Origin: an uncultured Pseudomonadota bacterium
GTDB lineage: Bacteria; SAR324; NAC60-12
Direction of reading: 5' to 3'
DNA: 64,000 nt
Assembly: GCA_964344035.1 (NCBI GenBank)
Contig: CAYFLK010000011.1
Location: forward strand, 339 to 64,338
Shown piece after piece: positions 1,965 to 16,014 of this stretch; within the stretch, counting starts at the first letter, position 1; each line of letters starts with the position of its first letter. Below the pieces are notes generated by a model, which did not search any database, was not told the DNA's origin, and saw only the letters and a list, made by a program, of their open reading frames with translations. The position numbers were made by a program, and so were the translations under genes.

Positions 1965-4130
1965 TCACGGGGTCAGGATCCCGATGCTGTAGAGGATGGC
2001 GACAGTGGTAAAAGTTTTGAAGATGATGTCAACAACGGTCGCATATTCCTTAATCGCCGATTCCTTCGGCCTCAGGTCAGGAGGCGCCACGATTGTGTCA
2101 CCGGCACTTATTTCATACCCGGAATCCCGCACCACCAGTCCGCTGGCCTGGATCACGTAGACATCGTCCGCGTTCGTGGAATTGCGAAGACCTCCGAGTT
2201 GGTCGATGTAGAATGTCGCTGTTTTTCCTTCCACCAGCGGCAGGGACGCCTCGCCAAGCGTTTCTCCCTTGACCATCACAATTCGCGTGACCGGAGGGAT
2301 GGTGAGCACGTCTCCGTCCATCAGTTCAACGTCATCGGCGGTGCCGACAAAATCAGCGAGGGTTTTGAGTTTAAGAACCAGGCGTCCGAGGTTTATATCC
2401 TGTATTTTCACCGATTTGTCGGCTTGCGCCTCGTTTAATCCCTGACGAATGGCGTTGATCGCCTTCAACTGGGTGTCCGGGGAGGTGAGGCTTGATGCCG
2501 CTGCAACCGTGCTTTGCAGCAGGGCGTGGTCGATGTCCTTGCGCAACCTGGTGTCAATCGCCACCTCGCGGCTGCGCAACATTCTGCGTGTGAAAACCGC
2601 CGCCTCGAGGAAAGCTTTCTTGGTAAATCCTCCCGCCTTTTTGAGCACGTCGCTCAAGCGTTCTCCCTGAATGAACTCGTATGTCCCGGGAAAGCGCACC
2701 TCGCCGTTAATGGTGACATATCCCGGTTCACGATAACCGGCAAGATGCCTGATCAGCACCGAATCTCCGTGCCGGAGATTGAATTCCGGCTGAGTGGTCA
2801 GCTTGTGCGGGTCCAGTTTGATGCGGTAGATCTGGCGCAGGCTTTCTCCATTCCGGTATTCCCAGCGGGAGATGTATGCCGTCAGGTCTGTTGCTTCTGG
2901 ATGGTCCAGACCTCCCGCGGCGAGAATCAGGTCGCTCATCTGCATCTGATCCAGCAAAGGGTAGTTCCCGGGTTTTCGGATTACCGAACCGTTGACAATG
3001 ACCATTTTGTCTTCCACTGGAGGAAAAACTTTCAGCACATCATGGTCCCGGAGCAGCAGTGACCGGGAGGACGTTTCATCAAGTGAAACACGGATCAGCG
3101 AACGCCCGGTTCCGGGGATGCTGCGCTCGATCTGCACCAGCCCCGGGTCTGAATCCGGGAGCGTGCCGCCGGCAAGGGCGATTCCTTCTTCAACGCTGGT
3201 GTTTCCGTCCAGTTCGTAAATCGCAGGGCGGCGCACCATCCCTGAGACTGATACCGCGTTTTTCAGCAGCGGGATGAAAAGAGTGTCTCCGCTTTTCAGC
3301 GACACCTCGCTGAGTGAATTGCCTGCAAGGAAGTAGTCATAGAGATCGACTTCAGCGACCTTTTCTCCACCGCGCTTCCATTGAATACGGCGCAGGCTTC
3401 CGCTTTTTTTCACTCCCCCGACCAATGCCAGCACGTTGTAGACAGACGCGATGGCCGGCACGCGGTGCAGTCCCGGACGCTTGGCTTCCCCGACCACGTT
3501 GACCTGGATCGAACGCAGCCGCCCCAGCGTCGCGTAGAGAAACTTGGTCTTTTCGCGCAATTCTTCGTTGAGTTGCTCCAGCGTCAGGTTCCACGCCTGT
3601 ATCGGACGCACCCCGGGGATGTGCAGCAGCCCGCTCGGGTCCACCTGCAACCCCTGCCCGTTTGCGGAAAGCAGCCCGCTTTCTTTGCCGAGGCTGTCAT
3701 GAATCAGCACCTCGTCTCCGGGACCAAGGAAGTAACTGAGCGGCAGTGACTGATTCGCAATCGGATCAAACTGAAAACGGTCCGCGCGCAGCTGCTCATA
3801 CCCGAATTGCCTCAGCGGTTTTTCCCCGGTCAAACCCGGGTTCAGCTTCGGCTGCAGCTTTTTTTCCAGATCGGAAATAATCACCTTTTCCGGCAATACC
3901 GACGGAAACCGCGGTGTTTCCATGTCCGTTGGGGTTTGCTCTTGCGGAACAGTTGTTTGCGGTTGTCGTAGCTGCGTAAACCCTGGTTCACCATCCGCCT
4001 GTGAAGAAGAGGGTGCCTGTGACATATCCTGGTAGAGCTGCGACCACTGTTGAGCCGTGGGGGTCTGCGCGGTAAGTTGCGTGTTCCAGCCAAAGAGCGC
4101 GACCACACATAACAGGGCAAAAGGTTTCAT
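1965..4130 (-). CDS. polysaccharide biosynthesis/export protein (Wza/KpsD-like, SLBB domains) with long Q/P/T-rich N-terminal region
   Basis: The ORF spans 1965-4160. The likely start is the internal Met (MKPFALLCVVALFGW, a signal peptide) at 4130. The sequence has multiple soluble-ligand-binding beta-grasp-like repeats. Representative motifs are GPGDEVLIHDSLG, GSVIRKPGNYPL and GEVRFPGTYEF. The C-terminus is a transmembrane helix. Confidence 0.65.
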   Translation of the reverse strand: MKPFALLCVVALFGWNTQLTAQTPTAQQWSQLYQDMSQAPSSSQADGEPGFTQLRQPQTTVPQEQTPTDMETPRFPSVLPEKVIISDLEKKLQPKLNPGLTGEKPLRQFGYEQLRADRFQFDPIANQSLPLSYFLGPGDEVLIHDSLGKESGLLSANGQGLQVDPSGLLHIPGVRPIQAWNLTLEQLNEELREKTKFLYATLGRLRSIQVNVVGEAKRPGLHRVPAIASVYNVLALVGGVKKSGSLRRIQWKRGGEKVAEVDLYDYFLAGNSLSEVSLKSGDTLFIPLLKNAVSVSGMVRRPAIYELDGNTSVEEGIALAGGTLPDSDPGLVQIERSIPGTGRSLIRVSLDETSSRSLLLRDHDVLKVFPPVEDKMVIVNGSVIRKPGNYPLLDQMQMSDLILAAGGLDHPEATDLTAYISRWEYRNGESLRQIYRIKLDPHKLTTQPEFNLRHGDSVLIRHLAGYREPGYVTINGEVRFPGTYEFIQGERLSDVLKKAGGFTKKAFLEAAVFTRRMLRSREVAIDTRLRKDIDHALLQSTVAAASSLTSPDTQLKAINAIRQGLNEAQADKSVKIQDINLGRLVLKLKTLADFVGTADDVELMDGDVLTIPPVTRIVMVKGETLGEASLPLVEGKTATFYIDQLGGLRNSTNADDVYVIQASGLVVRDSGYEISAGDTIVAPPDLRPKESAIKEYATVVDIIFKTFTTVAILYSIGILTP

Positions 4131-4555
4131 GCAATTGTAATTGACGTTTGTTTTCAGCATAATGGTTTGGAAATTTCAGTTCAGAAAGCCGCTGGATCCT
4201 GTGGAATTAGAATTGAAAATGGGAAAAAGCATCCTGCAAGGATTCCTTGCCGGGAACCAGGATTTTGATTGCGGACAAATCTTTAAGGATGGCATTCCCC
4301 AGGTGGACGTGAAAAACAGTGAGGGATAATTTTCAGCAGGATAAGGCTGTGATTATAACAGTGCTGAGTCCGGAAACAAGGAGAGACTCACCTCCAAAAA
4401 ATGTATAAGAACGTCTCAAACCATCCGGACAACAGCGCATGGTTCTATCAAATCTAGACTCGTATGTACTTCAACGAGTACACGTTTACCCGGGGATGCG
4501 GGATTAATTTCTATCAATTGAAAACCAATGTCGAGTTGAATCCTTTTTAGCCTTT

Positions 4556-4652
4556 CCGTAGTTGGGTTGGCGTGAGCGTAAGCCAGCATTTCATCATGTG
4601 CTTTCTGCGTATTGTCGGGTTACGCCGCCGAAGCGTCTAACCCGACCTACGG
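4556..4652. repeat. inverted-repeat-flanked REP/MITE-like element (CCGTAGTTGGGTTGG ... CTAACCCGACCTACGG)
   Basis: The imperfect terminal inverted repeats were read directly. It has CCGTAG/CTACGG ends like the other palindromic repeats in the window. It is intergenic. Confidence 0.5.
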
Positions 4653-4706: not shown

Positions 4707-4730
4707 CGGGCCGCCCTAACGGGCGGCCCG
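4707..4730 (-). terminator. GC-rich hairpin CGGGCCGCCC-TAAC-GGGCGGCCCG 30 nt past the stop of the 929-aa lipoprotein gene
   Basis: Perfect 10-bp stem with a 4-nt loop. The downstream U-tract is weak, so either a rho-independent terminator or an RNA-stability hairpin. Confidence 0.4.
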
Positions 4731-4759: not shown

Positions 4760-7513
4760 TCACTGCCCGCCCCGAACGCACCTGGCATAGTAGTTATTGG
4801 TCTTATTGTAGTTGTACACGCCGCCGTTGTTGAAGTACACGTACCATGCGTAGGACGTGTTGCTCACAAGGGTAGTGGACGACCAATAGTTCGAGGACTG
4901 TGTATTTAAGAAATAAGCAGTGTCGATGGTTGGGTAAAAGGCTCTATCTACCAAGCTGAACAACTGATCCTTGCTGGGCAGCCACCAGTCGTTGTAGCCG
5001 GCGAGGGAGAGGCCGGAGCAGTAAGCCGCGGCCTCAGACCAATTTCGTCCTATTGCATCATCCTGCTTCTGCCACATCAGGTTGTGCTGGTTGTCGGTGA
5101 CGGTTCCGTCGCCGTTGTCCGTGTAACGGGTGGTGGCGTTGTCCGAGGAAGAAAAGTGATACAGTTCCGGTTGGGTGGAGGGATCGTCCACGGAGGAGGA
5201 GTTGTCCCGCCACCAGGAACGCCGGAACGAGGAATTATCGAAAATCCAGCGGTTCCAGGCCGTATAGTTCGTGTTCCCGCCGAGAGTTCGGTATTCCCCG
5301 GTGCCGATGTTCCCCTGGGCAGTCCATTCCCCCCATCCGGAATAATTGCCGTTCAGCCAGTCCGCGCCGCTGGTGGTGCCGGCGTAAAGCGACCGCTCGC
5401 TTTCCGTGGCGGATACGGAATAGGATCCATAGGCGCTCGTATAATTGTCCACGCTAACGTTGTCCCAGGCGCTGATTTCGTAGGCGATCAGGCTGGAGCA
5501 GTTGTCGTCGGAGTAGAGGTACGTCTCGTCTGAAACGGAAGCATTGTCGGTTACCACCGTCGCGTAGCGGGCCGCCCGCATGTCGGAGGGTCCGTTGGTA
5601 CCCCAGTTTTGCGGCATGCAGTAACTCGCGTAGGAACCGGAGAGGATGCTGCCGCCGACCGGGATGCTTCCGGAAGCAATCGCGACCATGCTGCTGAAGG
5701 GCTGCCAGGTCCCGGAGCTGGAATAGGAGTTATCCCATTCGCAGGCCATCGGAGGATAATAGCCCGCGCTCAGCGGGGCGAACACTTCGCAGCCGAGGTT
5801 GGTGGGAAAACCGCCGGTCGCGTTGTCGCTCAATTTCTGGTCGCCCATGCGCAGCGTGTTGTTGTCGTTGATAGACATGATTTCCTTAAAGGGCTCGCCG
5901 GCGGGCGGCATGTCTTCCAAATCGGCGCATCCCGTGACGTCCTTGGCCACGCCGACGGCCCAGTCCGAATATCCGCAGAGGGTGGTGGAATTGTCCCGAG
6001 TCATGTGCCCGACCCAGTTCAGGTCGTAAAAAGTCAGGTCGCTCGACTGTATGGTTACATCAACCTGGGTGGCGCTCTGGTTGTCGACGGTGACCTGGTT
6101 CCCCTCGACGAAGGTGAACTGATGATTGAATATCATCCCGACTGTCCCGACGCAGCTTCCGTTGTCGCTGCCGCCCTGCTCGGTGTTGAAGCTTTCATGC
6201 CTGTACTGACCGGTACTCCCGCTGATGGTGAACGTGGATTTCTGGTCGTTATTTGAAAAAAATCCGCCGGTGGAGCATGCGACCCAGGTCCCCTCGAATG
6301 TGGAGGAGCAACTGGTTCCATCACAGATGACCGGCGGCTGATAGGCGTATGGTATCAGTTCGAAATCGACCGTGGTCGCGCCGTCGATGTTCGCCTGGCA
6401 GAGGGTGTAGTTGTCGCCGTCGGTTTCACACACGGTGACGCGCAGGATGCCGTCGTCTGTGTCCCGGTAACCCTGCATCACCGCCTGCATGCGGCCCACC
6501 CCGACGTCCGGACGGGAAGCGTCGGTGAGGTCGATGAGGGTGAAATTGTCAAAGACGCGCGGTTCGCCGAGCAGGTACTCCCAGCTTACGTCGAGGCTGT
6601 TGAATGGTTCGTCGTCGCTGACGAGAACGGTCCACTCGAGGCTGCTGTTGTCGATGCGCTCGGCGCTCAGGCTTTCTATCACCGGGTTGGCGTCAACCGT
6701 TGTTTCGGATTCGATCGGTCCGGTTACATAGACTTTGAAGGTTACCGTCACCCCGATTTCCTGCTCGTTGGAGACGCGCACCTGAAGGTCCTGCGCGCTG
6801 GGCAGGTCGGGGGCGCTGTAGGTGGTGGCGATGTCCGGATATGTACTGCTGTTGTCTAACGTGTGCGTTCCTTTTTCCGGGTTGAAGCTGCCGCCGGTCA
6901 AGGGGTCTTTTGGCAGAGACTGGTTGTCGATCGAGCGGAAGCGGTAGAGCAGCGGCTGCAGATCGGTGTTGATCACCGTCACCAGGATGCTGCCGTTGTC
7001 GGTTTTTTCGAGCTGGAACGGACGGTTGATGCGCGTGATGCGCGGGACGCTTAAGTTTCGTTCATCGAGCATCGGCACGAGCCGCAGCGAGAGGGCGTTT
7101 GTGCCTTCGTTCACCGTGTGCTGCGTCTCCCCGCGGAAGATCTCCACATACGCGCTTGTGTTGTCTGGGGAGTTGTCCGATTTGTAAGCGTGTCCGGTGA
7201 TGGTGTAATCGAAGCTGACGATGAGGTTATGAATCGTCCCCTGCCAGCGCGAGGTGTTGTCCCGCGTGAGCGCGAAATCGGTGACAACCTCGCGGTTGTC
7301 GAAGTTACGCTTGATTTCTAAGGCGAGCCTCTCGATTTCATCGAAGGTGCCGAGGAAGCGTTCCGCGCGGGAGGACCCGCCGAGATCCACCTCCAGCGTC
7401 ACCGTTTCCGGGACCGCGTTTTCCAGGGTTTTTTGTTCTTCCTGCATGGCGCAGCCCCAGATGAGCAGCCCGGTAAGCAACGCGCCGCAGACGCTCTTCA
7501 TAACCGTTTTCAT
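4760..7513 (-). CDS. large secreted lipoprotein with C-terminal DUF1566 (Lcl C-terminal-like) domain
   Basis: Start placed at ATG 7513 (MKTVMKSVCGALLTGLLIWGC), preceded by the strong RBS GGAGGATGG. Lipobox-like cysteine. S/T/N/G/Y/W-rich body. The C-terminal ~150 aa carry the DUF1566 signature TVTDNQHNLMWQKQ...WSEAAAYCSGL...GYNDWWLPSKDQLFSLVD. Confidence 0.7.
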   Translation of the reverse strand: MKTVMKSVCGALLTGLLIWGCAMQEEQKTLENAVPETVTLEVDLGGSSRAERFLGTFDEIERLALEIKRNFDNREVVTDFALTRDNTSRWQGTIHNLIVSFDYTITGHAYKSDNSPDNTSAYVEIFRGETQHTVNEGTNALSLRLVPMLDERNLSVPRITRINRPFQLEKTDNGSILVTVINTDLQPLLYRFRSIDNQSLPKDPLTGGSFNPEKGTHTLDNSSTYPDIATTYSAPDLPSAQDLQVRVSNEQEIGVTVTFKVYVTGPIESETTVDANPVIESLSAERIDNSSLEWTVLVSDDEPFNSLDVSWEYLLGEPRVFDNFTLIDLTDASRPDVGVGRMQAVMQGYRDTDDGILRVTVCETDGDNYTLCQANIDGATTVDFELIPYAYQPPVICDGTSCSSTFEGTWVACSTGGFFSNNDQKSTFTISGSTGQYRHESFNTEQGGSDNGSCVGTVGMIFNHQFTFVEGNQVTVDNQSATQVDVTIQSSDLTFYDLNWVGHMTRDNSTTLCGYSDWAVGVAKDVTGCADLEDMPPAGEPFKEIMSINDNNTLRMGDQKLSDNATGGFPTNLGCEVFAPLSAGYYPPMACEWDNSYSSSGTWQPFSSMVAIASGSIPVGGSILSGSYASYCMPQNWGTNGPSDMRAARYATVVTDNASVSDETYLYSDDNCSSLIAYEISAWDNVSVDNYTSAYGSYSVSATESERSLYAGTTSGADWLNGNYSGWGEWTAQGNIGTGEYRTLGGNTNYTAWNRWIFDNSSFRRSWWRDNSSSVDDPSTQPELYHFSSSDNATTRYTDNGDGTVTDNQHNLMWQKQDDAIGRNWSEAAAYCSGLSLAGYNDWWLPSKDQLFSLVDRAFYPTIDTAYFLNTQSSNYWSSTTLVSNTSYAWYVYFNNGGVYNYNKTNNYYARCVRGGQ

Positions 7514-7789
7514 ACCATCCTCCAGTATGAAGGTTGAAGCCCGCATCACCCCCCTTGATCCCGGACCGGGTTGGATGTTTCCATTACCTGCCGGTTATGG
7601 AAACAATGCGAGTCTAAAATGACTTGAACATTTACTTCTGTGGTTTACTCGCTTTTGCCCTGTTTATTCGTTTCCACGTTTTGATGCAAGAGGAATGCAG
7701 TAAAGTGACGGAGAACGCCATACATGCATCCCCATGCTGAGCTTGGGAACGGTTTTCCTGCATATAACCGCTCTTTGTTTTACAAAGGT

Positions 7790-7870
7790 CCCTCACCCTT
7801 GCCTTCTCCCGAGGGGGGATGGAGGAGCAAGGACGATTCCTTCTCCCGGAGGAGAGGAACAGGGTGAGGG
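7790..7870 (-). terminator. long imperfect hairpin (CCCTCACCCTTGCCTTCTCCCGAGG ... CCGGAGGAGAGGAACAGGGTGAGGG) downstream of the 659-aa lipoprotein gene
   Basis: An inverted repeat of ~25 nt per arm, read directly. It lies 25 nt past the stop codon on the coding strand. It shares the motif CTCACCC..CTCTCCCGGAGG with the intergenic element at 13262-13300. Confidence 0.45.
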
Positions 7871-7894
7871 GGTAGTTTTCACGCATAAGGCCGA

Positions 7895-9874
7895 TTATTC
7901 AATCAGGGTTGCTTCCAGGTCGCCGATCCAGTGGCTGAGGTTGTCGTTCCAGCTGGAAAGGTTGTCTCCGACGGAAATGTTGTCGGTGCGGGCGATGCTG
8001 CCGTTGTCGACCTGGATGAAGAACACCGGCTGCCGGTAGGGGCTTGCCTGGTTAGGTGCCTCGGTTGTGGTATTGTCGAGATCGTCCTTGAAGCGAAACG
8101 GCCCGTAACTGAGGTCCCCGTCCAGTCCGGGAGCGGACAGGTCCACCCGCACTCCCTGCAGGTCTGCATTGGTAACGTCTTCCACCCAGACAAGGTACGT
8201 CCCGTCGGCGACTGCCCCGCTATTGGTTGCCCAGACCTGCACTTCCGTGCCGTGCACGGTGAGGGTGTGGGTCCCGGACCCGGAGTCGCCGAGATCAAGG
8301 GCGGTGCCGAGTATCGCCCCGGAGGAGTTGTCGGCCAGCTTCAGGGTCCGCGAGGCGGAATCGATGCTATGGGCGTAATACAGGGTCCCCGTGCTCAATC
8401 CCGAGGGCAGGGTCCCGGACGAGGAAACCGAAACCGGGGTCCCGGTAGTTACCGAACTGAGGTCGGTTCCGGAAACAAAGGTCAAATCGTCGGTAGCCGC
8501 ATCCACGCTGAACTCCGCGCGGTTGACCGCGGATGTGTCGATTTCAGTCAGCTCCGTGCCGTCCGCGAGCTGAATGGTGTCACCGGTTTCAACATATTTC
8601 TGGTAACTCGCGTTGCTGTAAACGTGGTAGCGCGTGCCGCGGCTTTCGTTATCGAAACTTGCGTTGTCCTCCTCAGAGTATGCCCATCCCGGGAAATAAT
8701 AGGAGTGCAGGTCAGGGTCCGAACCGTCGGTCCAGGTGAGGGTGAAGCACATGGCGCTGTTGTCAATGCACGCGTCATAAGTCACTGAACCCATTGATAC
8801 CTGTTTTGAACTGCCTTCGATGCTGATGATCACGACGAAGGAATTGCTTCCGTTGACCAGCGAGATGGTGGTGGGAGTGGTAAAATCGATGCGGTAGGTG
8901 ACATTATCGGAATTCGTGCTGTACGCGGAAGGAAGGGCGGTGTCCGGGGTGATGTCGAGCGTGCTGGAGTTGGCGGTGTTTTTGACCACCATCGTAGAGA
9001 TGATCTGGGTTACGTTGTCCTTCTTCGCCAGCGGCACCTCCACTACCAGGCTCCCGGAAGCATTGGCGTAAGGAGAGGTGCCGAACTGGCTGACGCTCAT
9101 GTTGTCGAAACTGATCCAGTCCAGATCAAGCATGTTCGGCGTCAGCTTGATGTCGAGAATTTCCTCGGAACTGGCGAGGAGGAATGTGTCGGTCGTTGAA
9201 CTGAACCCGTTCAGGGTGACCTGGTACGAATATGACCCGTATTCCAGGTTGAGCGGGACGGTGTGAGTGGTGTTGTCACTGATAGTGATGTTGTCGCTGT
9301 AAACCTTGTTTCCGGAAAGGTCGCTGACGGCTAATGATCCCGTAGTCCCCGTCACCAGGCCGGCGCTGCTGACGCTGCCGATTTTCACCGTCACGGTGGA
9401 GAAGAAGGTTCCCCAGAAATCAACGACTACAGTTTTGACGCTTGTATCGTAATCCACGCTGAAAATTTCCGATTCCCCAAAACTCTCCGCTTCAATGTCT
9501 GCCGAGGCAAGGTCAGCCAGGGAATAGACCGCGGAAAAGAAATAGAGGCAGAGTTTGAGCTGGACCTCCAACGGAACCACCATTTCGACTTCATACGCAC
9601 TCAAATCCAGCAGCGCGCGGTCGTAATCCGAAGATGAAGGTCCGTAATTCGTGGAACACTGGGCCGCGGGCCTGAGCACCACCAGCGCGGTTTTTGCTTC
9701 ATCGAGGGTGATCCCGGTTTTTACGGCGGAACGCTCCCCGGAGTTGTTTCCGTCAACCCTCATCCGCACATGGGCGGTCCCGCGTGTTTCCGGGTCGATA
9801 TCCGCGCACGCGGAAAGCATAGTCAGCGCTGCCAGCAGGAACCCGAAGAATTTTGCTGCATGGCGCGCGTTCAT
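7895..9874 (-). CDS. large secreted lipoprotein, S/T/D/N/G-rich (cell-surface protein, unknown function)
   Basis: 659 aa. The N-terminus MNARHAAKFFGFLLAALTMLSAC carries a signal peptide and lipobox. Low-complexity beta-rich composition. Sits in an operon with the FecR-like and DUF1566 genes. Confidence 0.6.
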   Translation of the reverse strand: MNARHAAKFFGFLLAALTMLSACADIDPETRGTAHVRMRVDGNNSGERSAVKTGITLDEAKTALVVLRPAAQCSTNYGPSSSDYDRALLDLSAYEVEMVVPLEVQLKLCLYFFSAVYSLADLASADIEAESFGESEIFSVDYDTSVKTVVVDFWGTFFSTVTVKIGSVSSAGLVTGTTGSLAVSDLSGNKVYSDNITISDNTTHTVPLNLEYGSYSYQVTLNGFSSTTDTFLLASSEEILDIKLTPNMLDLDWISFDNMSVSQFGTSPYANASGSLVVEVPLAKKDNVTQIISTMVVKNTANSSTLDITPDTALPSAYSTNSDNVTYRIDFTTPTTISLVNGSNSFVVIISIEGSSKQVSMGSVTYDACIDNSAMCFTLTWTDGSDPDLHSYYFPGWAYSEEDNASFDNESRGTRYHVYSNASYQKYVETGDTIQLADGTELTEIDTSAVNRAEFSVDAATDDLTFVSGTDLSSVTTGTPVSVSSSGTLPSGLSTGTLYYAHSIDSASRTLKLADNSSGAILGTALDLGDSGSGTHTLTVHGTEVQVWATNSGAVADGTYLVWVEDVTNADLQGVRVDLSAPGLDGDLSYGPFRFKDDLDNTTTEAPNQASPYRQPVFFIQVDNGSIARTDNISVGDNLSSWNDNLSHWIGDLEATLIE

Positions 9875-9880
9875 CTGCCC

Positions 9881-10996
9881 TCAGCGGTTGCGGATGTCGG
9901 TTTTCAGAATGAAGATCCGGTTCCGACTGAGATCGAGCGCCTCTTCAGCACGATCGATCAGTTCCTGAATCGTGTCGATTTCCTCAATCCTGTCGATAAC
10001 CTCGGTTTCCTCTTCCTCCTCGATCGGAAGCGGGGCTGATGTTCCGCCGCTCTCGCGACTGCGCACCGCCTCCACCGGTTCCGCCGGTCCAAACTCAAGT
10101 TCCACGAACACGTCGGGGTCTTCCGCATCCATGATCTGTTGCTGCTGTTCCCGCGGCGTCTCAACCGGATCGGAGGGAACGGCGCCTTCCTTCACGCGTG
10201 AAACGGTGTTGCCGGGGATCACGATTTCATACTCCGGAAGTTCGGCGGATGCCATCGTCACTTCTCCGGAGAGGGTAAGCACGTTCGTCGAATCACCGGC
10301 GGTGGCGACCACGAATTCGGTGCCGCGTACCCCAACCAGCGCGGAAACCGTGCGCACTCGGAAGCGTTTCTTTTTGCGCACTTTCAACCCGCCCAGCTTG
10401 AACGCGCCGATTTTCGCACCAAGTTCCTTTTTTCCCGCGGGCGGGACCGGCGCGGAGGTTGGCGCGGATTTCCGCGGGAGGGTGTCAGCTTCCGTTTCAC
10501 CAGGCGGACGCTCCTCTACCGGAATTTCTACTGCCTGCTGTTCCTCAGGAGTATCTTCGGGCGCCGCCGGTTCCGGAGCGGTGGGGACGACAAAATTCCC
10601 CTTTCCCACCAGCAGAGCCACCGCGCGCTGTTCCGCCGAAACGCCCTCCACCGCGAACAGCGCGTGTGAAAACAGTTCGATCTTCTCTTCATTGCGTGTG
10701 AGTGCGACCCGCACCCGCGTATCCGCGCCGGTGTGCAAACGATCACCCGCGTAAAGGTCGAGCTTTAATCCAGGTTGCCAAAGGATGCGGCTTTGACCCG
10801 CACGCATCAGCTTGAGTGCGCCTTTCTGCAGCCGCAGAATACCTTCCGCCGCATGAGCAACCCTGTATGCAGGCACGCAAAACACAAATACAGCGATGGC
10901 AAAACCGCATACTCGCATACAAATCGCAATTCCCGCGGGCAGTGCCCAATTCATATCGCTGTGACCCGCGTGGACCTCGTTTCGCGTTTTTTCCAT
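9881..10996 (-). CDS. FecR-domain protein (two FecR-like modules separated by P/E-rich linker)
   Basis: N-terminal transmembrane/signal segment. GDRLHTGADTRVRVAL..IELFSHALFAV resembles a FecR/DUF4974 beta fold. A second module is VGVRGTEFVV...LTLSGEVT. The C-terminus is acidic. The start could instead be the internal Met at ~10954. Confidence 0.55.
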   Translation of the reverse strand: MEKTRNEVHAGHSDMNWALPAGIAICMRVCGFAIAVFVFCVPAYRVAHAAEGILRLQKGALKLMRAGQSRILWQPGLKLDLYAGDRLHTGADTRVRVALTRNEEKIELFSHALFAVEGVSAEQRAVALLVGKGNFVVPTAPEPAAPEDTPEEQQAVEIPVEERPPGETEADTLPRKSAPTSAPVPPAGKKELGAKIGAFKLGGLKVRKKKRFRVRTVSALVGVRGTEFVVATAGDSTNVLTLSGEVTMASAELPEYEIVIPGNTVSRVKEGAVPSDPVETPREQQQQIMDAEDPDVFVELEFGPAEPVEAVRSRESGGTSAPLPIEEEEETEVIDRIEEIDTIQELIDRAEEALDLSRNRIFILKTDIRNR

Positions 10997-11099
10997 TTCA
11001 ATCCCAGGCTGGCGTCGTTGCGGCGTCTGCTGAATCGGCGGACGGGAATCTTTTCAGATTATCATCCTAAACCTCTTGTGCGACATGTCAACCAGAATG

Positions 11100-11250
11100 G
11101 GAGGCAAGAATATCAATTATTATAAAATATTAAATTACAATTATTTCAATATTTTATATAAATTATTATTGAAATGGTGAAAGATATGTGTTTGTATGCG
11201 GTAAAATGCGGTAAAAAAATATTTCACCTGCCGATCCCCTGAGGAGAAAA
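11100..11250. promoter_or_regulatory. strongly AT-rich region upstream of the FecR/lipoprotein operon
   Basis: The sequence reads attattataaaatattaaattacaattatttcaatattttatataaattattattgaaatgg. This is a sharp compositional break from the GC-rich flanks. It is a likely promoter or nucleoid-protein-binding region. Confidence 0.4.
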
Positions 11251-15620: not shown

Positions 15621-15830
15621 CTGTCTGCGCCTGCCTGTCGCTTTCGCGAGGCAGACAGGTGCAACGCACAAGCAGGCAAGAATGAAATTGGTTATGTTAT
15701 GGATAAATGTTGTTTACATGGGTAAATCCCGTAACCTGGCGCACAATGTGATGGAAATGTTCAAAAACACACCCTCACCACTGTCTGCGCCTGCTTGTCA
15801 CGATTGCGACGCAGACAGGTGCGACGCACA
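15621..15830. repeat. two ~50-bp direct repeats, each an imperfect hairpin, separated by ~110 bp
   Basis: Copy 1 (15621-15670) is ctgtctgcgcctgcctgtcgctttcgcgaggcagacaggtgcaacgcaca. Copy 2 (15781-15830) is ctgtctgcgcctgcttgtcacgattgcgacgcagacaggtgcgacgcaca. CTGTCTGCG pairs with CGCAGACAG within each copy. Confidence 0.65.
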
Positions 15831-15884
15831 TGGAGGTAACGCTAGGTGAGTGGTCATAATTGATAATTACGTATAACGAAGATC

Positions 15885-16014
15885 CTGTAGGGGCAACCCA
15901 CCGTGGTTGCCCTTAGCAGGGTGGTCAAAAGATGCCCGCCAGCCGCGCTACACTTGGCGCATGCAGGCGTGCAGACACGTGATTTTGGGCAGACACAGAG
16001 GTCTGCCCCTACAG
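15885..16014. repeat. REP/MITE-like element with terminal inverted repeats CTGTAGGGGCA / TGCCCCTACAG and two internal 8-bp-stem hairpins
   Basis: Hairpin A at 15891-15912 is GGGCAACC-CACCGT-GGTTGCCC. Hairpin B at 15988-16009 is GGGCAGAC-ACAGAG-GTCTGCCC. Hairpin B has the same stem as the hairpin at 1921-1942. Confidence 0.65.

Follow-up and report, generated by a model that had tools for sequence, protein, structure and literature searches.

A SAR324-lineage-specific gene trio read as an envelope display operon for lectin or adhesin lipoproteins with exchangeable heads

What does a FecR-domain gene do in front of two genes for very large lipoproteins, one of which ends in a DUF1566 domain? 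The question is raised by a locus in a 64-kb stretch of DNA from an uncultured bacterium of the SAR324 lineage (contig CAYFLK010000011.1), hereafter the window, in which a trio of open reading frames (ORFs), all on the minus strand, spans positions 4760-10996. In the dark ocean, few lineages of uncultured bacteria are as abundant as SAR324. A preliminary description of the trio had seen in it an accessory module of adhesin or surface-layer (S-layer) type, equipped with its own sensory, anti-sigma-like component. Here we read the locus, with moderate confidence, as a SAR324-lineage-specific operon for the display of lectins or adhesins at the cell envelope.

The three co-directional genes of that description were confirmed by the ORF list with its translations and by independent gene calls, which give the same three products; identical proteins are found on four metagenome contigs (ENA and Logan, PRJEB17505). 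We refer to gene 1 as the FecR protein, to gene 2 as LP2 and to gene 3 as LP3, and their coordinates are collected in Table 1. Coupling between the first two genes is tight, with 6 nt from the stop of gene 1 to the start of LP2. The spacing between LP2 and LP3 is 380 nt if LP3 starts at the ATG that follows a GGAGGA Shine-Dalgarno sequence (917 residues), and 345 nt if it starts at an upstream GTG at 7549 (929 residues). The FecR and DUF1566 assignments also hold, as both score above their Pfam cutoffs (34.8 bits against 24, and 111.1 bits against 34.9).

The FecR domain (PF04773) of gene 1 first appeared incomplete, the match being limited to profile positions 53-96 over residues 205-246. When an insert of about 66 residues was deleted in silico, the match extended over profile positions 1-96 of 97 and scored 43.7 bits. 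Because this deletion converts a half-match into a full-length match, we concluded that a single FecR domain is split by the insert, and that the double module first described is one domain. Both length and sequence of the insert vary over the FecR-protein family, which also keeps a basic RKKKRF motif at the start of the second half-domain, a C-terminal helix, and a strand-like C-terminal motif (ILKTDIRNR in the window, TFTNR in most relatives). The N-terminus, previously taken for a membrane anchor, looks like a cleavable signal peptide, judging from its sequence: about 15-30 residues are followed by a hydrophobic core of about 11 residues and then by AHA↓AE, and in the aligned family members comparable AxA-like sites follow a run of 10-12 hydrophobic residues. 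This leaves no room for a cytoplasmic domain of about 80 residues, so the product of gene 1 is not an anti-sigma factor.

Comparison with the FecR/PupR-type anti-sigma factors makes the point clearer. The periplasmic PF04773 beta-sandwich is common to them and to the product of gene 1, but where they have their cytoplasmic anti-sigma domain the latter has a signal peptide, and the combination of such a domain with a transmembrane helix is absent from the N-terminus of the window protein and of all aligned family members. Neither an STN-like nor a DUF4974 domain was found at the C-terminus when the last 121 residues were scanned alone (E ≤ 10), and the FecR domain is interrupted by its acidic insert. 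The locus also differs from theirs in having no adjacent extracytoplasmic function (ECF) sigma factor or TonB-dependent transducer, and in its sigma-70-type promoter. No Sigma70_r2 or Sigma70_r4 domain was detected in ten window ORFs, five of them picked for their ECF-like size, in agreement with the earlier remark that no ECF sigma lies nearby; among the genes called in related loci, too, neither an ECF sigma nor a TonB-dependent transducer appeared. Gene 1 is a periplasmic FecR-fold protein without an anti-sigma domain, and a FecR match in Pfam need not mean anti-sigma signalling. Its homologues number 115, the best being 47% identical, and all those with an organism name are labelled SAR324. 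A solved-structure search with the FecR protein gave no match.

LP2 is the second member of what proved to be a fixed pair. The cysteine of its lipobox is invariant in 30 sequences, and AlphaFold2, run with the family alignment, models residues 55-370 with confidence as all-beta. Pfam and NCBIfam hold no family for LP2, nor was any significant family found in 30 LP2 homologues. At least 574 homologues were collected, all unnamed or labelled as SAR324/Deltaproteobacteria metagenome-assembled genomes, and a profile search over 1.84 billion representatives returned a handful of full-length relatives. Among 185,579 species genomes LP2 occurs in 10 loci. Seven of them bear a SAR324 label, and the remaining three, assigned to Rhodospirillaceae, Proteobacteria and Pseudomonadota, are probably misbinned. 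These three apart, the organism-named homologues of the trio come from SAR324-type metagenome bins. The first 150 or so residues of LP2 are also found fused to LamG (P0258) or to PA14/GLEYA (P0250). An inserted unit of about 90 residues (residues ~445-540) is present only in the LP2 clade of the window and missing from a shorter clade; it recurs as arrays in many large proteins, with up to 27 copies in one of 2987 residues (P0197), whose Pfam signal is a summed FeoA match alone with no single significant stretch. The insert was also tried as a repeat of the giant ORFs found downstream of LP2 in relatives (see below), and no match was obtained.

For LP3, the match to Lcl_C (DUF1566, PF07603) covers the whole profile (positions 1-117 of 117). 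Its lipobox, IWGC, is atypical, and a majority of the family has cysteine at the corresponding consensus position. AlphaFold2 with the family alignment models residues 30-595 with confidence, as about four sandwiches of immunoglobulin (Ig)/FN3-like type followed by a beta-barrel-like domain. Structure prediction, which had been suggested as a check for Ig folds, thus recovered Ig-like or beta domains in both lipoproteins. Foldseek searches of the PDB with the LP2 and LP3 models returned the Gram-positive pilins and adhesins TIE, PitA, SpaA and BcpA, and further the MG domains of complement and alpha-2-macroglobulin, S-layer proteins (SlaA/SlaB) and Ig/FN3 receptors including APCDD1. A viral fold library gave generic Ig/FN3 matches only, and the DUF1566 head matched solved structures at chance level only. 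Pfam detected no SLH or other S-layer anchoring family in LP2, LP3 or 30 LP2 homologues, and no collagen repeat family in LP3. LP2 and LP3 were also considered as paralogues, and this was rejected (best BLASTP E = 0.45).

The composition of the two lipoproteins was correctly described as rich in S, T, N and G, which sum to 35% in both against 22 ± 2.5% for other window genes. Both are acidic and low in K+R (5-6%), and their GC content at third codon positions (GC3) is the window maximum, 0.78 for LP3 and 0.73 for LP2 against 0.62 ± 0.06. They are not of low complexity, as had been stated: 12-residue windows below 2.2 bits of entropy make up 0.2-1.2%, the same as in the neighbouring Wza-like protein, and the beta domains are modelled with confidence.

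We then asked what is conserved around these genes. The FecR gene lies immediately 5′ of LP2 in all 13 related loci with upstream sequence (L005-L008, L011-L013, L016-L020, L024), as in the window, with identities of 35-59%, and of 31-50% for FecR. What follows LP2 differs from one locus to the next. In two loci (L006, L008) the following gene starts 3 nt on and encodes 416 residues corresponding to LP3 residues 23-402, and is itself followed by a beta-helix protein. In five others (L011, L012, L013, L016, L019) a giant ORF comes next. That of L012 (L012:11845-21654) encodes at least 3270 residues and extends past the edge of the locus. Apart from one LamG domain close to the N-terminus it matches nothing in Pfam, and BLASTP detects no repeats within it. 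The giant ORF of L016 carries Calx-beta and F5/8 type C (discoidin) domains. Short-read contigs end 0.4-4 kb past LP2 in 4 of 4 look-ups, which fits strain-variable, population-level variability. The FecR-LP2 pair is conserved over the SAR324-type lineage and the third gene is variable. An accessory character, as first proposed for the whole module, therefore applies to LP3 and not to FecR-LP2, which behave as conserved core; the envelope or surface part of the proposal agrees with the lipoboxes and the tandem Ig-like domains.

Variability is also seen within the LP3 family itself. Its 75 homologues have a common scaffold (residues ~30-400 or ~30-595) and then diverge, and the alignment end-points cluster at three junctions. 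At junction A (LP3 residue ~118-122), insertions of 100-340 residues carry NHL/TEN_NHL/SBBP propellers, and in one protein (P0186) Lcl_C takes the place of the first domain. Junction B (residue ~398-405) is followed by SBP_bac_3 (P0127) or Peripla_BP_6 (P0186). Junction C (residue ~579-603) leads into LamG (P0133), Big_5 (P0149), DUF285 (P0138), a sub-threshold Sortilin match (P0165) or directly Lcl_C (P0125, P0156). The full architecture of the window LP3 was found in three clusters only (P0122-P0124, 54-61% identical).

The region upstream of gene 1 belongs to the conserved part as well. We aligned the 270 nt upstream of the window FecR gene with the equivalents in L006, L008 and L018, loci of 43-45% GC whose FecR and LP2 are 46-55% identical to those of the window. 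Four blocks are invariant, namely TTTTTACCGCA, an AT-rich tract, CC.CCC.TT..GTTGACA and TAG.AT..TA; the position of TTTTTACCGCA before the FecR gene is conserved in the three relatives, and its window form is the tandem TTTTACCGCA. The 200 bp upstream of the relatives' genes have 25-30% GC against 40-45% for their loci. In the window, the tract holds the lowest GC over 150 bp (24.7%). The AT-rich island first described is therefore real, but its surroundings are not otherwise GC-rich, since the window has 53% GC and five other short stretches at 27-33%. From its conserved sequence, the island is best taken as a sigma-70-type promoter region and not as a mark of foreign DNA, the same architecture being found before the FecR gene in relatives, within which we interpret the tract itself as an UP-element-like or nucleoid-protein-binding portion. 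No exact copies of TTTTACCGCA that would define a regulon were found in the window beyond the adjacent pair.

Table 1. Coordinates of the trio, its domains and the elements around it (positions in the window; residues in each protein).
Feature	Position	Strand	Residues	Details
Tandem pair of exact TTTTACCGCA copies, putative regulator-binding site	11197..11216	-		Upstream of promoter
AT-rich tract	11090..11230			23% GC
Predicted sigma-70-type promoter	11064..11091	-		TTGACA-N16-TAGGAT, 10/12 consensus positions; promoter scan
Gene 1, secreted FecR-fold protein	9881..10996	-	371 in all	
Gene 1, putative signal peptide			~15-50	
Gene 1, FecR N-terminal half	10583-10744	-	~85-138	
Gene 1, Pro/Glu-rich insert	10385-10582	-	~139-204	~66 residues
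Gene 1, FecR C-terminal half	10259-10384	-	205-246	
Gene 1, remainder				Acidic linker, conserved helix, conserved C-terminal strand motif
Gene 2 (LP2), lipoprotein	7895..9874	-	659 in all	Lipobox LSAC, Cys23
LP2, tandem Ig-like beta-sandwiches	8765-9712	-	55-370	AlphaFold
LP2, clade-specific inserted repeat unit	8255-8557	-	~445-540	~90 residues
LP2, conserved C-terminal domain				Invariant motif YDAC..MC..L.W.DG..PDLHS
Imperfect hairpin, 25 nt past LP2 stop	7790..7870	-		dG -42.7 kcal/mol, z -3.0, no U-tract
Palindrome TGTTTCCATaACC-N4-GGTaATGGAAACA, 60-90 nt before LP3 start	7576..7605			dG -15.6, z -4.2, no U-tract
Gene 3 (LP3), modular lipoprotein	4760..7513	-	917 in all	Cys21
LP3, Ig/FN3-like stalk	6314-7426	-	30-400	AlphaFold
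LP3, beta-barrel-like domain	5729-6316	-	400-595	AlphaFold
LP3, W/Y/S/N-rich region, no assigned fold	5108-5728	-	596-802	
LP3, Lcl_C/DUF1566 head	4772-5107	-	803-914	Pfam
Perfect 10-bp GC hairpin CGGGCCGCCC-GTTA-GGGCGGCCCG, 30 nt past LP3 stop	4707..4730	-		dG -28.7, z -5.5

A working scheme can be proposed from these results. The trio would be transcribed from the conserved promoter within the AT-rich tract. Gene 1 would supply a periplasmic protein with its single, insert-split FecR beta-sandwich, and LP2 a conserved lipoprotein of tandem Ig-like domains. LP3 would provide a scaffold, the conserved Ig-like stalk and the beta-barrel, bearing an exchangeable ligand-binding head, which in the window would consist of the W/Y/S/N-rich region followed by a C-type-lectin-like DUF1566. 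The head may be exposed at the cell envelope and there bind polysaccharide, particles or other cells, and the invariant FecR-LP2 pair would be the assembly, anchoring or scaffold partner, presumably by physical interaction, of whichever large variable protein sits downstream. Support for a lectin or adhesin function comes from the all-beta models with their pilin, adhesin, MG-domain and S-layer matches, and from the LamG, discoidin, PA14/GLEYA and Lcl_C domains found in the relatives of LP2 and LP3 and in the downstream giant ORFs.

Several observations weigh against this scheme. The LP3 head, DUF1566 included, is poorly modelled, with a predicted local distance difference test (pLDDT) below 50 from residue 628, because few sequences cover the head (residues 628-917). 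The Foldseek matches are generically Ig-like, with E-values down to 1e-8 and low TM-scores. Some heads of the LP3 family are solute-binding domains, which fit nutrient capture better than adhesion. The closest DUF1566-type relatives of LP3 (L021, L023) are not preceded by FecR-LP2, so that LP3 may not strictly need the pair. Finally, co-transcription of LP2 and LP3 across the 380-nt gap is putative.

Known systems resemble the trio in part. In Legionella Lcl, DUF1566 has a C-type-lectin-like fold and forms the head atop a glycosaminoglycan-binding stalk, and a generic role in carbohydrate recognition and/or trimerisation has been proposed for it (PMC11162425). LP3 likewise carries a C-terminal DUF1566/Lcl_C head on a stalk, but its stalk is modelled as Ig-like domains whereas that of Lcl is a collagen triple helix, and it would be anchored by predicted lipidation, unlike Lcl, which is held by an amphipathic helix after type II secretion. 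The SusE/F-type glycan-binding lipoproteins of Bacteroides also combine an Ig-like build with carbohydrate-binding modules and strain-level domain variation; in contrast with them, the locus shows no SusC/SusD partners and no sequence homology, its partners being the FecR-fold protein and LP2. In Leptospira, proteins with FecR or DUF1566 domains are reported to act as adhesins of the envelope or surface, with host matrix as their target (PMC3444417). In NCBIfam, gene 1 came closest to Lsa33 and LipL45, and the C-terminus of LP3 to Lsa25, with scores far under the family cutoffs (27 bits against 420, and 30 against 260); only domains are alike, and LipL45, Lsa33 and Lsa25 lack the scaffolds of LP2 and LP3. 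To our knowledge Lsa33 and Lsa25 are separately named Leptospira proteins and are not known as neighbours. A literature search on DUF1566 with FecR and on SAR324 adhesins produced only these domain-level Leptospira papers and metabolic surveys of SAR324, and FecR, lipoprotein and MotA go unmentioned in the main text of the SAR324 metapangenomics paper. We place the locus within the theme of the modular adhesin lipoprotein, of which it is a lineage-specific and so far uncharacterised form with an unusual conserved partner set. It defines two protein families without Pfam coverage, LP2 and the LP3 scaffold, and its three fixed junctions, which accept lectin, propeller or solute-binding heads, offer a way to follow how niches and strains differentiate in metagenomes.

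A first alternative to adhesin display by the trio alone comes from the genes upstream of FecR in relatives. The same order, FliG-like, MotA, MotB_plug/OmpA, beta-barrel, then FecR and LP2, recurs in every one of the 10 loci whose upstream flank reaches 7 kb or more (L005-L008, L011-L013, L016, L019, L020; e.g. L008:2960-8537). The first gene encodes a membrane-anchored protein of 531-557 residues with a cytoplasmic part that resembles FliG; its family profile matches the FliG of T. maritima (1LKV, 3AJC) in the middle and C-terminal domains at E = 3.8e-5. The second is a MotA homologue closest to MotP/PomA/MotA, scoring 122 bits, under the curated cutoff of 394, and the third a 522-residue MotB_plug and OmpA protein. 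The fourth (414-466 residues) is a putative outer-membrane barrel with sub-threshold Porin_4 and PorP/SprF hints only, and its profile found no match among solved structures. The MotA, MotB and FliG resemblances all stay under curated cutoffs. No other flagellar genes were seen near this cluster in relatives, and it could be a non-flagellar module of stator-rotor type. The MotB of relatives also matches ZorB in PADLOC through its OmpA-like domain.

The trio might accordingly be the output end of an envelope machine driven by the proton motive force, in which the FecR-fold protein and LP2 link a motor with large variable adhesins so that these are moved, tensioned or retained, the motor of the window genome lying elsewhere. 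We think this unlikely, the constant gene order and the FliG and MotA matches notwithstanding. Synteny by itself is no proof of a physical link, and the window lacks all four motor genes. The FecR gene is also served by a conserved promoter of its own, even in relatives a gap of 109-237 bp lies before it, and the beta-barrel gene has no match above threshold. Stator-like channels that serve adhesins do exist, as in SiiAB with SiiE (10.1101/641415, PMC6272769), SiiAB being a MotAB-like proton channel required for SiiE function (10.1101/641415). SAR324 relatives resemble this Salmonella system in encoding MotA/MotB-like proteins, in their case next to FecR-LP2 and to a protein of adhesin type that is giant or variable. 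Other adhesin systems assisted by stators are GldLM-SprB of Flavobacterium and AglRQS-Glt-CglB of Myxococcus. The SAR324 loci differ from all these systems in that genes for type I or type IX secretion were not seen in them, a membrane FliG-like protein being present instead, that the motor genes are absent from the window, and that no adhesin homology was detected. A bolder form of the idea makes FecR-LP2 the periplasmic and lipoprotein adaptor of an undescribed non-flagellar rotary or stator machine in SAR324. This machine would be built from the four products of the upstream cluster and be powered by the proton motive force, and it would serve to move, to put under tension or to expose a set of interchangeable adhesins, giant or lectin-headed, and the window would hold a cassette uncoupled from its motor genes; this we regard as decidedly unlikely. 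If the link between FecR-LP2 and the MotAB/FliG-like genes were functional, it would represent a new type of energised adhesin apparatus.

Less probable again is a role in nutrient capture, in which members of the LP3 family, tethered to the envelope, would bind substrates much as the Sus-type lipoproteins do and pass ligands to transporters, with heads reflecting the substrate range. The SBP_bac_3 and Peripla_BP_6/ANF_receptor heads found in the family besides the lectin types would suit it, and the window encodes a tripartite ATP-independent periplasmic (TRAP) transporter, DctM, and an NMT1-type binding protein. Most heads of the family are nevertheless of lectin, propeller or Ig types, which are typical of adhesins, and no TonB-dependent or ATP-binding cassette transporter adjoins the trio in the window or in relatives.

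We give still less credence to the trio as a polymorphic recognition or decoy system, with heads that serve kin or partner recognition, as myxobacterial TraA does, or that diversify under phage or grazer pressure. Extensive domain shuffling at the three fixed junctions is in its favour, as is the company kept by LP3 homologues. In two loci (L022:1-5102, L010:138-4658) genes of the family adjoin a DUF6538 and Phage_integrase tyrosine recombinase, the integrases being 97% identical, and in L022 an inverted LP3 N-terminal fragment stands at the contig end, which suggests an integrative element or recombinase-driven cassette switching. In two others (L021:2652-3292, L023:2005-2645) a PIN_3 toxin gene and that of a 76-residue antitoxin lie on the opposite strand immediately upstream of LP3 relatives. 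The window, in contrast, holds no integrase or recombinase and no silent LP3 cassette, and no remnants of a PIN toxin-antitoxin pair were found in its gap. TraA homology is lacking, TraB is recovered only via the generic OmpA-domain match of a relative's neighbouring gene, and none of the PADLOC defence models matched the three window proteins. As side observations on these loci, AAA_25 genes are found near the LP3/integrase loci (L010, L022); in L021 and L023 a large repeat-containing gene without Pfam match precedes the PIN_3 pair, and in L021 the N-terminus of a giant-ORF family member comes after LP3.

The initial proposal of an adhesin or S-layer-like module whose FecR-type anti-sigma-like sensor signals to an ECF sigma factor elsewhere is the least probable of all: a FecR domain is present, SlaA/SlaB are among the Foldseek matches and the acidic, S/T-rich, K/R-poor lipoproteins with their top GC3 could fit abundant coat proteins, but the missing anti-sigma and DUF4974/STN-type domains, the lack of an ECF sigma in the ten ORFs, the sigma-70-type promoter and the absence of S-layer anchoring domains oppose it, and its anti-sigma part is largely refuted.

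We also looked at the intergenic elements. The gap between LP2 and LP3 had been described as 345 bp with a long hairpin, from which a separate promoter for LP3 had been suggested. Structured elements are present, but the hairpin past LP2 is imperfect: its arms, 20 nt each, are complementary to 80% and enclose a 41-nt loop. It is possibly an attenuator or an mRNA stabiliser; an origin as a repetitive extragenic palindromic (REP) element or miniature inverted-repeat transposable element was rejected, as no repeat of it occurs elsewhere in the window. The arms of the palindrome nearer LP3 are 13 nt long and 92% complementary, and it could be an operator or an RNA hairpin. The promoter scan found no sigma-70-like site in the LP2-LP3 gap, and Rfam gave nothing credible in the leader or the gaps. 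In L006 and L008, as said above, the gap after LP2 is of 3 nt only. The GC hairpin past LP3 is the probable end of the operon, and was missed by the consensus terminator scan because it has no T-run. An 84-residue ORF lies inside the gap (7632-7886, minus strand) and overlaps the hairpin; it is probably spurious, because it is left uncalled in all metagenome gene predictions.

On its upstream side the trio is flanked by a DsbA-like gene on the same strand, which abuts the FecR promoter region, and beyond it by divergently oriented genes for pyruvate/2-oxoacid dehydrogenase E1-alpha, E1-beta and E2. Directly downstream on the same strand is the gene for a Wza-like polysaccharide exporter (1965-4160, 731 residues, Poly_export and four SLBB domains), and past it are dTDP-sugar genes of RmlD/RmlC type (318-1232, same strand). 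An exopolysaccharide export cluster thus adjoins the lectin lipoprotein operon in the window. This closeness may be coincidental, and the relatives' contigs end too early for comparison. The atypical composition first suspected was not borne out: the trio genes have 57-59% GC, at the upper end of the window and like the adjacent pyruvate dehydrogenase genes, and nothing in their composition marks the locus as foreign. The related loci have 37-46% GC, below the 53% of the window, and marine SAR324 genomes typically have 43 ± 3% (PMC8364033). Judged by homologues and synteny, the window probably comes from a divergent SAR324-type bacterium of unusually high GC.

A 28-nt REP-like palindromic element (GTAGGGGCAGACCTACGTGTCTGCCC..., 93% complementary) is present at 1917-1944 and 15985-16012, and the two copies bracket a 14-kb segment from the Wza gene to the pyruvate dehydrogenase E2 gene. 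Structured repeats akin to it lie at 15621-15679 and 15781-15839, and a further REP-like hairpin (GTAGGTCGGGTTAGACGCTTCGGCGGCGTAACCCGAC) at about 4614-4650.

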